Below are positions 9,319 through 30,789 of a DNA stretch of 46,722 bases, in pieces; position 1 is the first letter of the stretch, and each line of letters begins with the position of its first letter. A program made the translations under genes and the position numbers. The notes beneath the pieces are model-generated. The model saw only the letters and a program-made list of their open reading frames with translations. It did not search any database and had not been told where the DNA came from. The stretch comes from an uncultured archaeon. Its GTDB lineage: Archaea; Nanohalarchaeota; Nanosalinia; Nanosalinales; Nanosalinaceae. The stretch lies in assembly GCA_964421955.1 (NCBI GenBank), contig CAYQYU010000008.1:1-46722 (forward strand). The letters run 5' to 3'.

Positions 9319-9516
9319 TCATCGAACTGGTAGCTCATCGAGCAACCTACATCGAACGTGTTTGGATCAACCTCGTTCTCGGTAGGAAGATAACTGGAAT
9401 ACGAGATCTCCAGACAAATATTGTGCTCCCCAGAGTCTTCAAAGTCAGGAAATACACTTACTAGAAGTATAGCTGTTTCCTCAAGTATTTAATTCTTGGT
9501 CGCCCCGGCTATTTTT

Positions 9517-10020
9517 ATGAAGGCTCCAATCTGTAACGTATGTCTCAAGAGCGACCAGCTGTGCTCAGCTTGCCAGGAGAAGCTCGATGAAGGCGAAATA
9601 GACGAGATCGACATCAAAATCTCCCGGATACTCCAGGAACTATCGAACGAGTATGGCTCTCTCAAGGACTCAGAGATAGAGAGAGTCTTCGACACCGAGA
9701 ACGTCGTCGTTATAGTTACCGCGGAAGGAGACGGCGCAAAAGTAGTGGGTAGACAGGGAGAGATAGTGAAGGAGCTTGCAAACCAGATCGATAAATCGAT
9801 TCGCGTGGTGGAACACGCATCGGACGACCTGGAAGTCATCAAGGGTTTACTCTCACCTGCGGAGGTGCAGTCGGTCAACACGGTTTTCGAGCCCGACGGA
9901 GAGTACAAGAAGATAGTAGTCGACGAGGACTACGAGGGCAAGATCAATCTGTCGCAGGAGGAGTTCGAGCACATCGTCGACAAGGTCACAGGAACCGATT
10001 ACAGGCTGGCGTTCGAGTAG
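9517..10020 (+). CDS. Archaeal NusA-like KH-domain protein with N-terminal Zn finger
   Basis: MKAPICNVCLKSDQLCSAC plus KH motif VVGRQGEIVKELA; start refined to ATG 9517. Confidence 0.85.
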   Translation: MKAPICNVCLKSDQLCSACQEKLDEGEIDEIDIKISRILQELSNEYGSLKDSEIERVFDTENVVVIVTAEGDGAKVVGRQGEIVKELANQIDKSIRVVEHASDDLEVIKGLLSPAEVQSVNTVFEPDGEYKKIVVDEDYEGKINLSQEEFEHIVDKVTGTDYRLAFE

Positions 10021-10062: not shown

Positions 10063-11853
10063 ATGCCAACGGAAAAATCGAAGCGCTACATCGTCGTGAT
10101 TGACCAGGACAAGATAGAGCCAGATCTTGCCCAGGAAACTGTAATCAACTTCGACCCGCTGAATCGATCAGGTCAGGAAGGCGGCTTCTACCTCACCGAG
10201 GAAGGTGAGCTGCATATTGATGAGGAAGACGTGATGGAGGCCCACCGGATGGCGATCAAGAAGTACCCCTACGAGGATGCGATAAAGCTCGTGCAGCTGC
10301 CGTACGAGGAAGGCGAAAAAGTACACCAGTTCTCCGACAACTCGTTCAGACTGTACGGTCTACCGGTCCCGGAAGAGGGCCGCGTCGTCGGAGTGCTCGG
10401 GGAGAACGGAACCGGAAAGTCAACCGCGCTAGAAATACTCGCGGGCAAAATCAAGCCGAACCTGGGCCGGTACGATGACGAACCTGAATGGGACGAACTC
10501 GTGAAATACTACAGGGGAACTGGACTCCAGAACCATTTCGAGAAGCTTTCATCGGACAACGTCGAAGCAGCCTTCAAGCCGCAGAAGGTCGAGGTGATTC
10601 CCGAGGTCTACAAAGGTGAAGTCGGAGGACTGCTTGAAGACGCCAGAGAACGTTCAGATATCGAAGAGATTTCCGAAAAACTGGATATCGACCACCTGCT
10701 TGACCGCAAACTGGAAGAACTCTCAGGCGGAGAGTTACAGCGCGTGGCGATCGCATCAACTCTGTTGAAGGATCGAGACATCTACATGATCGACGAACCA
10801 TCCTCTTTCCTCGACGTGAAGCAGCGGTTAAATGTTGCGCGAGAGATCAGGAAGCTCGCGGAAGACGATCGCGCAGTGATTGTCGTAGAACACGATCTCG
10901 CTACGCTTGACCTGGTATCTGACACGGTACACATCTTTTACGGCGATCCCGGGAGTTACGGAATGGTATCGAACTCGTTCTCCTCAAAGAACGGTATCAA
11001 CCAGTATCTCGACGGCCATCTTCCCTCCCATAATTTACGCATACGGGACGAGTCAATCAAGTTCGACCGTTCGAAAAGATCACAGGTCGAGCACAACGCA
11101 ACAGTCCTGAAGTTTCCAGAGTTCAGGAAGGATTTCGGGGAGGACGAGTTCTCGCTAAAGACAGCAGAGGGAGACCTCCACGAAGAAGAGATACTTGCAA
11201 TTTTCGGAGAGAATGGTCTCGGAAAGACCGTGTTCGCAAAGATGCTGGCCGGCGCCATAGAACCTGATGAAGGAGAATCACCCGACTTATCAATCTCCTA
11301 CAAGCCGCAGTACATCGAGGCCGGGGACGAAACAGTGGAAGAGGCGCTGAGAAAACACGTAAATCCTGATTCGCAGGAGTTCAGAACACGCATAGCCGAG
11401 CCCCTGAAACTTACCGGTCTGTATGAGCACAATCTAGAGGAGCTTTCAGGAGGGGAGCTGCAGCGAGTCGCAGTCGCAATTTCCCTTGCAAGGGACGCGG
11501 AAATCTACCTTCTCGACGAGCCAAGCGCATACCTGGATGTCGAGGGAAGAGTCAGTCTCGCGAGGACACTCAAGCGCTTCGCCCGCAAAACAGAAAGGCC
11601 TCTAATGGTGATCGATCACGACCTGCTGATGCTTGACTATATTGCTGATAGAGGAACAGTTTTCAGGGGTGAGCCCGGCGTTCAGGGCGAAAGCACGGAG
11701 CCCTCAAGAATCTCGGAGTCACTTAACAACTTCCTGAAAGAAGTTGATCTGACCTACAGGAAGGACCCGGAAACTGGGAGGCCGCGAGCCAACAAACCAG
11801 GATCACAGAAAGACCAGGAGCAGCGGAAGAAAGGCGAGTTCTATGAGCAGTGA
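10063..11853 (+). CDS. rli: Ribosome recycling ATPase ABCE1/Rli1, cysteine-free variant
   Basis: FRLYGLPVP, two NBDs (GENGTGKS, GENGLGKT), two LSGGELQRVA, DEPS, C-terminal YRKDPETGRPRANKPGSQKD. Confidence 0.96.
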   Translation: MPTEKSKRYIVVIDQDKIEPDLAQETVINFDPLNRSGQEGGFYLTEEGELHIDEEDVMEAHRMAIKKYPYEDAIKLVQLPYEEGEKVHQFSDNSFRLYGLPVPEEGRVVGVLGENGTGKSTALEILAGKIKPNLGRYDDEPEWDELVKYYRGTGLQNHFEKLSSDNVEAAFKPQKVEVIPEVYKGEVGGLLEDARERSDIEEISEKLDIDHLLDRKLEELSGGELQRVAIASTLLKDRDIYMIDEPSSFLDVKQRLNVAREIRKLAEDDRAVIVVEHDLATLDLVSDTVHIFYGDPGSYGMVSNSFSSKNGINQYLDGHLPSHNLRIRDESIKFDRSKRSQVEHNATVLKFPEFRKDFGEDEFSLKTAEGDLHEEEILAIFGENGLGKTVFAKMLAGAIEPDEGESPDLSISYKPQYIEAGDETVEEALRKHVNPDSQEFRTRIAEPLKLTGLYEHNLEELSGGELQRVAVAISLARDAEIYLLDEPSAYLDVEGRVSLARTLKRFARKTERPLMVIDHDLLMLDYIADRGTVFRGEPGVQGESTEPSRISESLNNFLKEVDLTYRKDPETGRPRANKPGSQKDQEQRKKGEFYEQ

Positions 11854-12106
11854 AAGGCTCTCAAAGGATGACATCGACTTTTCCCGGGGAGACGAAGACG
11901 TGGCGTTTGTCCATACAGATATCGACATGGAGTCGATAAGCGAGGAAGAAAACCCTCGCCAGGAACTCCTGGAAGAGATGGAAAATAGAGGTCTTGAATT
12001 CGAGAACGCGCGTGTAATCGGAATTTTCAGGGACGAGTTCTCGCTTCTATTGCAGGAAGATGCCAGGATAGTTCTCGACGGAGAACAGGTGTGGCCAGAA
12101 GAATGA
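11843..12106 (+). CDS. Hypothetical acidic protein
   Basis: 87 aa; overlaps the ABCE1 stop and the next start, suggesting coupling. Confidence 0.7.
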   Translation: MSSERLSKDDIDFSRGDEDVAFVHTDIDMESISEEENPRQELLEEMENRGLEFENARVIGIFRDEFSLLLQEDARIVLDGEQVWPEE

Positions 12107-29550: not shown

Positions 29551-30789
29551 ATGACCGACGACAACTCCGACAACCACATGTCGAAGTACGAGCTGAAGAA
29601 GCTGATCAAGCAGCTGGAGGAAATTAGAGGTCGCAACACTGAGCTGGTATCTCTCTACATTCCGGCGGGCTACGACATGTCGAAGATATCCGACTTCGTG
29701 ACCTCTGAGGCGAGCGAGGCGGAGAACATCAAGTCGAAGCAGACCCGGAAGAACGTCCAGGCGGCACTCGACAAGATTGGAAGAAAGGTCCAAGAGGAGC
29801 ATGAGACACCGGAGAACGGTGTTGCCTTCTTCTCCGGTAATGTCTCCGAACGGGAGGGACGGCCTGACATCCAGGTCTGGGAGGTCGTGCCGCCACAGCC
29901 TATCGAGTCCCGGCACTATCGATGCGACAAGGAGTTCGTGCTCGAGCCGCTGAGGCAGATGATCGTGGACGACCGCGTATACGGTCTGATCGCGGTCGAC
30001 AAGAATGAAGCGGCGATAGGCTACTTACAGGGAAGTTCCATCAAGACCGAGTACAGGATGACCTCCGAGGTTCCAGGAAAAACGCGCGCGGGAGGTCAGT
30101 CGGCGCAGAGGTTCGCAAGACATAGGGAACAGATGCTGAAGAATTTTCTGGACGAGGTCGCAGGAAACGCGAAGAAGGCGTTTTTGAACAAGTCCCGTGA
30201 AGGCAAGCTGCTCGGAATTCTGGTAGGAGGACCTGGGTGGGTGAAGGACAAGCTTATGGACGGCTATCTTCACCAGGAACTGAAGGAAAAAGTGGTTGCG
30301 AACAAGTCACTGAACTACTCGGGTGAAGAAGCCCTGACAGAGCTCGTCAACAAGTCAGAGGATGCCATACAGGACGCCGCGGTAGTCAAGGAGAAGAATC
30401 TTGTCAACAAGTTCTTCAGAAATCTGAAGGAGGAGAACGGCAAGAGCGAGTACGGCGTCGAACAGGTCAAGAAGGCGCTCGACATGGGCGCGGTTGAGAC
30501 AATACTCATTACAGAAGATGTAAACCTTTTCCAGGCCCACTACAGATGCCCAAACGATCACGAGAAGAACATCCTTGAGGAGAAACCCGAGATTTCCGAC
30601 TCAGTGGAATGCGACGAGTGCGGCGAGGATATGGACCTGGAGGACATCAGCGACATTGTTGACGTTTTCGGTAAAAAGGCGGGGGAAATGTCTTCGGAAC
30701 TCGAAATTATTTCTTCAGATCACGAGGAGGGCCAGCGGCTTTCAAATATGGGTGGAGTGGCCGCGATCCTCAGGTACAGGATCAGGTAA
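29551..30789 (+). CDS. prf1: Peptide chain release factor aRF1
   Basis: TELVSLYIP, NIKS, YRCD, GGQSAQRF, GAVETILI, AAILRY. Confidence 0.98.
   Translation: MTDDNSDNHMSKYELKKLIKQLEEIRGRNTELVSLYIPAGYDMSKISDFVTSEASEAENIKSKQTRKNVQAALDKIGRKVQEEHETPENGVAFFSGNVSEREGRPDIQVWEVVPPQPIESRHYRCDKEFVLEPLRQMIVDDRVYGLIAVDKNEAAIGYLQGSSIKTEYRMTSEVPGKTRAGGQSAQRFARHREQMLKNFLDEVAGNAKKAFLNKSREGKLLGILVGGPGWVKDKLMDGYLHQELKEKVVANKSLNYSGEEALTELVNKSEDAIQDAAVVKEKNLVNKFFRNLKEENGKSEYGVEQVKKALDMGAVETILITEDVNLFQAHYRCPNDHEKNILEEKPEISDSVECDECGEDMDLEDISDIVDVFGKKAGEMSSELEIISSDHEEGQRLSNMGGVAAILRYRIR

Follow-up and report, generated by a model that had tools for sequence, protein, structure and literature searches.

A cysteine-free ABCE1 in nanohaloarchaea and the probable stepwise loss of its iron-sulfur clusters

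RESULTS

A single ABCE1 gene without cysteine codons

The stretch of DNA studied here (the window) is a 46,722-nucleotide contig of an uncultured archaeon of the family Nanosalinaceae (assembly GCA_964421955.1, contig CAYQYU010000008.1), and the gene in question encodes ABCE1, the ribosome-recycling factor also known as RLI (Table 1). The source genome comprises 922,649 bp on 27 contigs and is 98.8% complete. In a preliminary description made from the letters of the DNA alone, the 596-residue product had been named ABCE1 and said to contain no cysteine, and both statements proved correct. None of the 596 residues of the translation is Cys, and the strings quoted from the N-terminal domain (N-domain), IVVIDQDKIEPD, DPLNRSG, and KKYPYEDAIKLVQLP, are present at residues 10 to 21, 31 to 37, and 66 to 80, respectively. 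The reading frame is closed by a stop 14 codons upstream of the ATG, and therefore no Cys-bearing N-terminal extension is concealed there.

The protein scored 718.7 bits with the NCBIfam equivalog NF009945 (cutoff, 469 bits), and the alignment runs unbroken from residue 10 to residue 595 against positions 4 to 589 of the 592 in the profile. Among solved structures, P. abyssi ABCE1 (3bk7_A; E = 4.6e-167) is its closest relative. Pfam found ABC_tran twice, and neither RLI (PF04068) nor Fer4 (PF00037) matched ABCE1, even at E values up to 1. In an alignment of 103 ABCE1 sequences, the Walker, signature, and H-loop residues all fall into invariant columns, which include K119, Q174, S221, G223, Q226, D244, E245, and H277 as well as K388, Q416, D485, E486, H519, R573, and N577. 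The preliminary description had also raised the question of a second, canonical ABCE1; only one gene of the genome exceeds the NF009945 cutoff, the runner-up among the ABC-type matches reaching 79 bits. By these matches, the window protein is judged to be a true ABCE1 ortholog and the sole copy in the genome.

Table 1. Positions of the ABCE1 gene, its parts, and associated genes in the window, and of Pelota elsewhere (NBD, nucleotide-binding domain)
Feature	Position	Strand	Remarks
ABCE1/RLI gene	10063..11853	+	ATG start, 596 aa plus stop, no Cys codon
Predicted N-terminal ferredoxin-like domain (residues 1-80)	10063..10302	+	Cys-free counterpart of the FeS cluster domain
First ligand motif, I18-x4-A23-x3-V27-x3-D31-P32	10114..10158	+	In place of C-x4-C-x3-C-x3-CP
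Predicted uS12-contact patch, P32-L33-N34-R35-S36	10156..10170	+	Retained
Second ligand motif, M58-x2-H61-x2-A64-x3-Y68-P69	10234..10269	+	In place of CxxCxxCxxxCP
Cantilever end, NBD1 with helix-loop-helix insert, hinge 1 (residues 84-330)	10312..11052	+	Walker A GENGTGKS, signature LSGGELQR, Walker B D244 E245, H277
NBD2 and hinge 2 (residues 331-596)	11053..11850	+	Walker A GENGLGKT, signature LSGGELQR, D485 E486, H519, R573, N577
174-aa Zn-ribbon and NusA-like KH protein	9496..10020	+	Directly upstream of ABCE1; Pfam KH_5
aRF1	29551..30789	+	A-site factor working with ABCE1; Pfam eRF1_1, eRF1_2, eRF1_3
Pelota	G000:C7:46669-47649		220.9 bits (cutoff, 177.65)

Replacement of the eight cluster ligands

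A 2026 review describes ABCE1 as universally equipped with two [4Fe-4S] clusters on eight conserved Cys (PMC13255074). According to Table 1 of that review, one cluster of human ABCE1 is held by C1, C2, C3, and C8 and the other by C4, C5, C6, and C7, and the same source gives seven or more of the eight Cys as required for viability of yeast. The clusters are reported to be diamagnetic [4Fe-4S]2+ centers that shape a domain of 75 residues (PMC5105147), and this FeS domain is likened to a lever or a wedge (PMC7196836, PMC13255074).

That the N-domain of the window protein still aligns with this canonical domain, with other residues at the ligand positions, had been proposed in the preliminary description and is borne out by our alignments. 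Used alone as a query (95 residues), the N-domain found the FeS domain of S. solfataricus ABCE1 as its top match in the PDB (6tmf_d; E = 1.1e-5), residues 10 to 37 being aligned without gaps to residues 3 to 30. Profiles of the Cys-free N-domains and of related N-domains with a partial ligand set (one-cluster forms, described below) were matched by hhalign with 99.6% probability (E = 1.2e-23; 44% identity over 72 columns), and together with the NF009945 alignment the two matches show homology over the full length of the domain. The first ligand motif falls without gaps on S. solfataricus C11, C16, C20, and C24-P25, and the spacing of the second is identical to that of CxxCxxCxxxCP. All eight Cys are replaced (Table 2), as read from three alignments (6tmf_d, 3bk7, and MAFFT columns) between which the assignments of C3 and C5 each differ by one residue. 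With none of the eight Cys ligands left, the domain would be unable to bind two [4Fe-4S] clusters.

Table 2. Residues of the window protein aligned with cluster ligands (C1 to C8) and with ribosome-contact residues of S. solfataricus ABCE1
Canonical position	Window protein	Conservation in the Cys-free set
Ligand C1	I18	
Ligand C2	A23	
Ligand C3	V27	
Ligand C4	D31	
Ligand C5	M58	
Ligand C6	H61	
Ligand C7	A64	
Ligand C8	Y68	
R2	Y9	
K15	L22	
N17	Q24	R in 80%
E19	T26	
P25	P32	100%
R28	R35	100%
S29	S36	
K59	K66	
K60	K67	90%

Distribution of Cys-free ABCE1

An HMMER scan of 1.84 billion cluster representatives (50% identity) returned 451 proteins at an E value of 1e-30 or better, and from the best 150 of these 451 we chose and aligned 88 full-length representatives. 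Cys occupied all seven cleanly aligned ligand columns in 81 of the 88; three were of the Cys-free type (P0121, P0123, and P0131), and four lacked one to four Cys (P0136, P0152, P0186, and P0205). The Cys-free state is thus exceptional within the ABCE1 family and ordinary for long proteins of this genome, in which 16 of the 102 open reading frames (ORFs) of at least 500 residues have no Cys and Cys makes up 0.70% of the residues of 884 nonoverlapping ORFs. The 120 database proteins closest to the window protein (66 to 81% identity) include ones named for Candidatus Nanohaloarchaea, for Nanosalina, and, among cultivated organisms, for Ca. Nanohalobium constans and Ca. Nanohalococcus occultus, and none of the 120 bears an RLI or Fer4 Pfam label; a further match, the window protein itself, is not counted among them.

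Within the phylum, Nanohaloarchaeota going by the names that close matches bear, we surveyed 70 species genomes, calling ABCE1 at an E value of 1e-100 or better with NF009945, and found 54 ABCE1 genes in 53 genomes. By family, designated f1 to f5 here, ABCE1 was present in 45 of 49 f1 genomes plus the source genome of the window, in the single f2 genome, in 6 of 8 f5 genomes, and in none of the f3 (one) and f4 (ten) genomes. Three of the 54 genes are truncated before the N-domain. In an ortholog alignment, a check that had been proposed in the preliminary description, the N-domain was free of ligand Cys in 49 of the 51 readable genes. The positions C1 to C8 read I/L/V-A-V-D-M-H-A-Y in 43 f1 genes (one of them missing the first column) and V-V-A-D-M-H-I/V-I/V in 6 f5 genes. 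The two exceptions are L008 (genome G035, family f1), which reads C-C-C-D-T-H-C-C and so retains five Cys (C1 to C3, C7, and C8), and L009 (genome G001, family f2), in which all eight are kept. Judged from these alignments, loss of the ligand Cys is nearly lineage-wide in nanohaloarchaea.

Family f4 consists of genomes G003 to G012 of the same order (e.g., L045 and L043), which are 80 to 93% complete. With the window protein as the query, the best matches in these genomes had E values of 1e-18 to 8e-13 and covered one NBD only; one of them is a 231-residue transporter-type ATPase adjoining a permease-like ORF. The termination factor aRF1 was found with 55 to 56% identity in three of five f4 genomes tested and in split form in a fourth. 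The bacterial ribosome recycling factor (RRF) was absent from the four f4 genomes tested and from the source genome (0/5) and was therefore rejected as a substitute recycling factor. In a separate observation, aRF1 at G006:C3:5223-8006 lies in two pieces (query residues 9 to 184 and 183 to 411) about 1.5 kb apart in one frame of 941 residues, an insertion that looks like an intein.

The Cys-free N-domain is under purifying selection

Mean pairwise identity of residues 10 to 80 was 78% within f1, versus 65% in one ATPase half and 70% in the other, and the corresponding values within f5 were 85% versus 70% and 68%. The N-domain is the most conserved part of ABCE1 within both families. In 51 Cys-free sequences Q15, D31, P32, L33, R35, L50, I52, V57, M58, and H61 are invariant, H51 and E59 are 92% conserved, and the apolar replacements at the C1/C2/C3/C8 site are 80 to 88% conserved. 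The ratio of nonsynonymous to synonymous substitution rates (dN/dS) of the N-domain ranged from 0.008 to 0.16 within families and was below that of the rest of ABCE1 in 9 of 10 pairs, the comparison being limited to the 10 within-family pairs with usable dS, as most pairs were saturated at synonymous sites. The Cys-free N-domain is held under purifying selection and, from its pattern of conservation, looks functional. These data also bear on the possibility that the missing Cys reflect an assembly error, a decaying gene, or a contaminant. The frame is open and of full length, selection is evident, and 49 independent genomes, some of which are single contigs of about 1 Mb, show this pattern; we found nothing in favor of an artifact of any kind and regard it as scarcely credible.

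One-cluster forms of ABCE1 and the order of loss

A search with the N-domain of L008 returned 29 proteins, of which 24 were of a one-cluster type and the other five canonical. Apart from a single S at C2, the 24 proteins retain C1, C2, C3, and C8; C4 is D, C5 is never Cys, C6 is H, and C7 is either C or S. Scanning one genome from each species for this pattern yielded 28 one-cluster loci (L117 to L144; proteins P0279 to P0301), all of which were read; the scan picks this type by design and gives no measure of the frequency of canonical ABCE1 in such genomes. The genomes are titled Ca. Woesearchaeota (14 loci), Nanoarchaeia, Nanoarchaeota, or Nanobdellati (6), "uncultured Methanosarcinales" (4), "archaeon" (2), Ca. 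Nanohaloarchaea (1), and Acidobacteriota (1). D is found at C4 in 27 of the 28 loci, H at C6 and a non-Cys residue at C5 in all 28, and M at C5, as in the window protein, in at least 4. The 27 genomes outside the nanohaloarchaea share a very conserved DP(I/V)N(R/K)SGG..GFH motif, with a mean column identity of 77%, and the one-cluster relatives do bear the Pfam RLI label (PF04068). A mirror image of this partial loss was seen in P0152 (586 residues, from a metagenome), which keeps C4 to C7 and has lost C1, C2, C3, and C8 to L, E, I, and A, respectively; it forms a long branch distant from the nanohaloarchaeal clade, and its pattern, opposite to that of the one-cluster forms, indicates that either cluster site can apparently be lost.

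In a tree calculated from the ATPase (NBD) columns only, the nanohaloarchaeal forms with D at C4 and H at C6 make up one clade of 54 rows (Shimodaira-Hasegawa-like approximate likelihood ratio test [SH-aLRT], 99), next to which stand the canonical proteins L009, P0122, and P0128; within the clade, support is 99 for f1 and likewise for f5. Placing L008 outside all other f1 rows gave a tree that was 15.7 log-likelihood (lnL) units better than the quick free tree (approximately unbiased test, p-AU 0.73), and this placement was not rejected. D, M, and H at C4 to C6 are common to f1 and f5, and the other five positions (C1, C2, C3, C7, and C8) differ, reading I, A, V, A, Y in f1 and V, V, A, I, I in f5. 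The simplest reading of these sequences would be a stepwise loss from two clusters to one and then to none, in which the C4-C7 cluster went first and the other cluster separately in the two families, with L008 and P0207 as surviving one-cluster forms.

The high conservation around the former C4-C7 site raises the alternative that the N-domain binds metal without Cys, with D31, H61, M58, E59, and H51 forming at this position a site for a single Zn or Fe ion or for a cluster of an unusual kind. D31, M58, and H61 are 100% and H51 and E59 92% conserved, versus 80 to 88% at the other cluster site, the D at C4 and the H at C6 recur almost without exception in the one-cluster genomes (27/28 and 28/28), and the canonical fold, going by the ligand set given in PMC13255074, places the C4 to C7 positions round one cluster. 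However, Asp-His pairs and Met are also common solutions for packing or hydrogen bonding, and no Cys remains anywhere in ABCE1. We know of no [4Fe-4S] cluster without any Cys ligand, which counts against a cluster of this kind, and consider metal binding by the Cys-free domain unlikely.

Fe-S assembly genes and Fe-S proteins of the source genome

As the cause of the Cys loss, the preliminary description had suggested that the organism might lack Fe-S assembly. A locus on contig C6 contains XPD, SufB, SufD, SufS, a NifU_N/SufU-like gene, and SufC. SufB (733.5 bits; cutoff, 346.4), SufC (331.9 bits; cutoff, 212.8), and SufS (499.4 bits; cutoff, 475.1) exceeded their cutoffs, and SufD (208.7 bits) was slightly below its cutoff of 222. 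SufBD was also found in 47 of the 49 other f1 genomes and in 6 of the 8 f5 genomes. In several relatives the SufB core, usually of about 470 residues, lies in frames of 829 to 890 residues or is split within one frame (G038:C71, G047:C58, G048:C54, and G067:C15), which suggests inteins or insertions.

A Pfam scan for Fe-S client proteins covered the 170 ORFs of up to 5,000 residues with at least four Cys, one ORF of 6,287 residues being excluded. Likely clients were Dph2, Elp3, XPD/Rad3, an NcsA/TtuA-like protein, an Nth-like glycosylase, and a 2Fe-2S ferredoxin, and the clearest intact Cys patterns were those of Elp3 (CGGGCIYC), Dph2 (three Cys), and the XPD insert (four Cys). PriL (PF04104) gave a weak match (E = 0.007) within a primase-like ORF of 508 residues with four Cys. 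The ferredoxin-type 4Fe-4S domain PF00037 had no match in the source genome and none in G035, the genome of L008, and the motif CxxCxxCxxxC occurs in none of the 884 ORFs of the source genome. G001, the f2 genome with the canonical eight-Cys ABCE1, has seven PF00037 matches; it encodes small ferredoxins and an adjacent pair of IscS-type cysteine desulfurase and NifU_N, and no SufBD match was found in it (loci noted, C13:95585-97130 and C11:87530-89248). The Fe-S economy of this genome is therefore unlike that of f1 and f5.

These results show that Fe-S loss can be protein specific in a genome that retains SUF. Loss of the clusters for want of Fe-S assembly might have been expected of a small, reduced genome without ferredoxin-type domain, but with the SufB, SufC, SufD, SufS, and SufU-like genes in one locus, SufBD in nearly all other f1 genomes, and Cys retained in Dph2, Elp3, XPD, and the NcsA-like, Nth-like, and 2Fe-2S proteins, we regard it as very improbable. 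Of the earlier suggestion that the fold is kept without cofactor because assembly is absent, one part stands, in that the domain is kept, under selection, and modeled canonically (see below); the cause that had been offered finds no support, as the assembly genes are present.

Ribosome interface

Contacts of the S. solfataricus FeS domain with rRNA are described for R2, K15, N17, E19, and K59 (2.8-Å post-splitting complex, PMC7196836), and the same source gives P25, R28, and S29 as touching Q76 and H100 of uS12. A cross-link is reported between K60 of ABCE1 and K40 of uS12 (PMC5105147). The aligned residues of the window protein are listed in Table 2. The uS12 protein encoded by the genome aligns without gaps to the 6tmf chain and retains Q76 (in RVQLIKNGK) and H100 (in IDEHDEV). 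On the basis of these alignments, the residues of the uS12-contact patch are retained and two of the basic rRNA-contact residues are replaced.

An alternative reading is that the Cys-free ABCE1 has been downgraded: it may bind the 30S subunit, in anti-association, biogenesis, or initiation, without acting as a splitting wedge, and the phylum may use another route of recycling. None of the ten f4 genomes (80 to 93% complete) has ABCE1 and aRF1 is kept in four of the five tested, so that an ABCE1-independent route may exist; moreover, the contacts R2 and K15 are gone in the window protein. Nevertheless, the N-domain is the best-conserved part of ABCE1, which would be unexpected had its mechanical role lapsed; in addition, ATPase motifs and hinge residues are preserved together with the uS12 patch, and bacterial RRF is absent. 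A downgraded function thus appears rather unlikely to us.

Structure prediction

Prediction of the N-domain structure had been proposed as a check in the preliminary description. A full-length AlphaFold2 (AF2) model built from the alignment of 103 ABCE1 sequences had a mean predicted local distance difference test (pLDDT) score of 93.7 and a predicted template modeling (pTM) score of 0.90, with pLDDT values of 88 to 96 for the blocks of residues 11 to 80. It superimposed on full-length P. abyssi ABCE1 (3bk7) with template modeling (TM) scores of 0.92/0.93 and a root mean square deviation (rmsd) of 2.2 Å over 597 columns and was closer to resting or presplitting conformations, postsplitting ones giving TM scores of about 0.7. 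The model thus predicts the N-domain in its canonical position with high confidence. A model of the 75-residue N-domain from 16 Cys-free sequences alone had a beta-alpha-beta-beta-alpha-beta topology (pLDDT, 76.6; pTM, 0.56). Its top Foldseek rows were ferredoxins and 6tmf_d with weak scores (E = 0.05 to 0.085; probability, 0.91 to 0.96; TMq, about 0.5), and VIA likewise gave weak matches (Z = 3.8 to 4.2; rmsd, 2.6 to 3.3 Å over 49 to 61 residues); there was no Foldseek match at an E value of 0.001 or lower and no VIA match with a Z score of 5 or higher. A search of a protein atlas with residues 1 to 85 of ABCE1 gave no usable match.

Neighboring genes and other loci

ABCE1 lies among housekeeping genes, namely, FtsZ, a membrane ORF, the Zn-ribbon/KH protein, a NUDIX hydrolase, and an AlaX-like gene. 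The Zn-ribbon/KH protein has an N-terminal CxxC...CxxC ribbon followed by the NusA-like KH domain, and its gene adjoins ABCE1 in 25 of 29 related loci, those of f5 and L008 among them. A very acidic ORF of 87 residues (positions 11843 to 12106, plus strand) overlaps the ABCE1 stop codon by 11 nucleotides and matched no family. This ORF is found downstream of ABCE1 in just 8 of the 29 loci and the NUDIX gene nearby in just 10, and we claim no link of either to ABCE1. Elsewhere, UDP-glucose dehydrogenase at G000:C27:423-1751 has an Intein_splicing domain, and the 6,287-residue ORF excluded from the client scan, on contig C1 (G000:C1:52608-71468), contains 50 Cys.

DISCUSSION

The window gene probably encodes the single, functional ABCE1 of a nanohaloarchaeon, with an N-domain that acts as a cofactor-free wedge and whose clusters were lost stepwise. 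From the sequences we infer the absence of any cofactor and the retention of ribosome-splitting activity, and a selective reason for the loss may be inferred as well. The site of the C1/C2/C3/C8 cluster would be filled by I18, A23, V27, and Y68 as a small apolar and aromatic core, and that of the C4-C7 cluster by the invariant D31, M58, and H61 plus A64, plausibly with an Asp-His link and Met as a filler. The portions in contact with NBD1, the cantilever, and uS12 are retained. As in canonical ABCE1, ATP-driven closure of the intact NBDs would swing the N-domain against aRF1 or aPelota, and the domain would then enter the 30S subunit's uS12/h44 pocket. Historically, a one-cluster form would have arisen first, through exchange of C4 for D, C5 for T or M, and C6 for H, and the second cluster would have been lost independently in the two families f1 and f5. 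All this may have taken place in a lineage without any ferredoxin-type 4Fe-4S domain, in which SUF is kept for a few other Fe-S enzymes.

Several observations weigh against a functional, cofactor-free domain with this history. That D31, M58, and H61 never vary in the Cys-free set, in which H51 is 92% conserved, exceeds what the filling of a void needs and could point to a metal site. Of the rRNA contacts, the basic residues R2 and K15 are replaced by Y9 and L22, respectively, and N17 corresponds to Q24. The sister family f4 is without any ABCE1 (0/10 genomes), and ABCE1 may therefore be less indispensable in the phylum. The confidence of the full-length AF2 model is not independent, as its alignment included canonical ABCE1, and therefore the model is no independent proof of cluster-free folding; in addition, the solved ABCE1 structures predate the AF2 network. 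The N-domain-only model is just moderately confident and its structural matches are weak (best Foldseek E = 0.05; VIA Z, at most 4.2). In the free tree L008 was placed inside f1, with weak local support, and one-cluster forms of other DPANN genomes branch at no fewer than three points among the canonical sequences. A common origin of the 51 reduced-Cys forms together was rejected on the NBD tree (lnL lower by 94.9; p-AU 0.0024), the tested group having been defined after the first tree was seen. Several rows of the tree, some f5 rows included, are of odd composition, which we take to reflect halophily. The scattered reduced forms would be explained equally by loss in parallel with identical replacements, by N-domain exchange, or by a compositional artifact.

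Relief from an oxygen-labile and iron-costly cofactor may be the reason for the loss, and oxidative or iron stress had been offered as a possible cause in the preliminary description as well; it fits that Nanosalinaceae-type organisms are described as aerotolerant fermenters on aerobic hosts (PMC7443923, PMC9765267), the clusters of yeast Rli1 are reported to be labile to reactive oxygen species (PMC3442406), and ferredoxin-type domains have been shed. It weighs against this reason that the first step of loss is also found in Woesearchaeota-titled genomes. Co-habiting haloarchaea are not known to lack any of the eight ABCE1 Cys.

Canonical ABCE1/Rli1, as represented by P. abyssi 3BK7, S. solfataricus 6TMF, and yeast 5LL6, has the same domain order as the window protein (N-domain, NBD1 with the helix-loop-helix insert, hinge 1, NBD2, and hinge 2). 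Identity to 3bk7 is 46% (TM score of the model, 0.92; rmsd, 2.2 Å), and all ATPase motifs and the uS12-contact residues are common to both. They differ in the N-domain, where the canonical protein has eight Cys with two [4Fe-4S] clusters and the basic rRNA contacts R2 and K15, whereas the window protein has none of these Cys, no detectable PF04068 or Fer4 domain, and both contacts replaced. The one-cluster ABCE1 (L008 and 27 genomes) resembles the window protein in D at C4, H at C6, the non-Cys residue at C5, and the DP(I/L)NRSG...GF stretch and is unlike it in keeping C1, C2, C3, and C8, enough ligands for one complete [4Fe-4S] cluster, and in many cases C7. The engineered S. solfataricus ABCE1 3OZX ("-FeS domain"), which ranked eighth in the structure search with the AF2 model (TMt, 0.92), shares with the window protein an intact twin-ATPase body without Fe-S cluster; however, in 3OZX the whole FeS domain is deleted, whereas in the window protein the domain is kept, conserved, and stripped of its ligands alone. 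Barthelme et al. (2011) reportedly found that deletion of the FeS domain abolishes splitting. Cases in which a metal site is replaced while fold and role persist are known from Cys-less (C-) zinc-ribbon ribosomal proteins and from the cluster-free archaeal RNA polymerase subunit D. These cases concern other proteins and metals and often pairs of paralogs, whereas ABCE1 here is a single ortholog of an essential type. Full-text searches of the literature on ABCE1 in nanohaloarchaea, DPANN, and Woesearchaeota and on Fe-S clusters and SUF in nanohaloarchaea gave no description of a Cys-free form, and for DPANN and Woesearchaeota none of a one-cluster form; within the limits of the literature searched, both forms appear to be undescribed.

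A more far-reaching possibility, which we regard as doubtful, is that the phylum and its DPANN relatives preserve the whole path along which the clusters were dismantled, from two clusters (f2) to one (L008 and the Woesearchaeota-type forms), none (f1 and f5), and finally no ABCE1 at all (f4). If this were true, the clusters would be pure scaffolding, replaceable by ordinary side chains, and archaea would have an ABCE1-independent mode of ribosome recycling; a family of archaea that has no ABCE1 would be remarkable.

The role of the ABCE1 clusters is debated, and functions in structure and in redox or oxygen sensing have been proposed. The Cys-free N-domain suggests that the clusters are replaceable scaffolding. 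Three natural forms can be compared, namely, an apparently working ABCE1 without clusters, an intermediate with one cluster, and a canonical relative from within the phylum, and with these proteins the question whether the clusters serve as scaffolding only becomes testable. The Cys-free form may also provide a template for oxygen-insensitive ABCE1 variants in biochemistry. The essentiality of Fe-S biogenesis has been argued to rest on ABCE1, and the finding of a probably functional ABCE1 without clusters bears on arguments of this kind.

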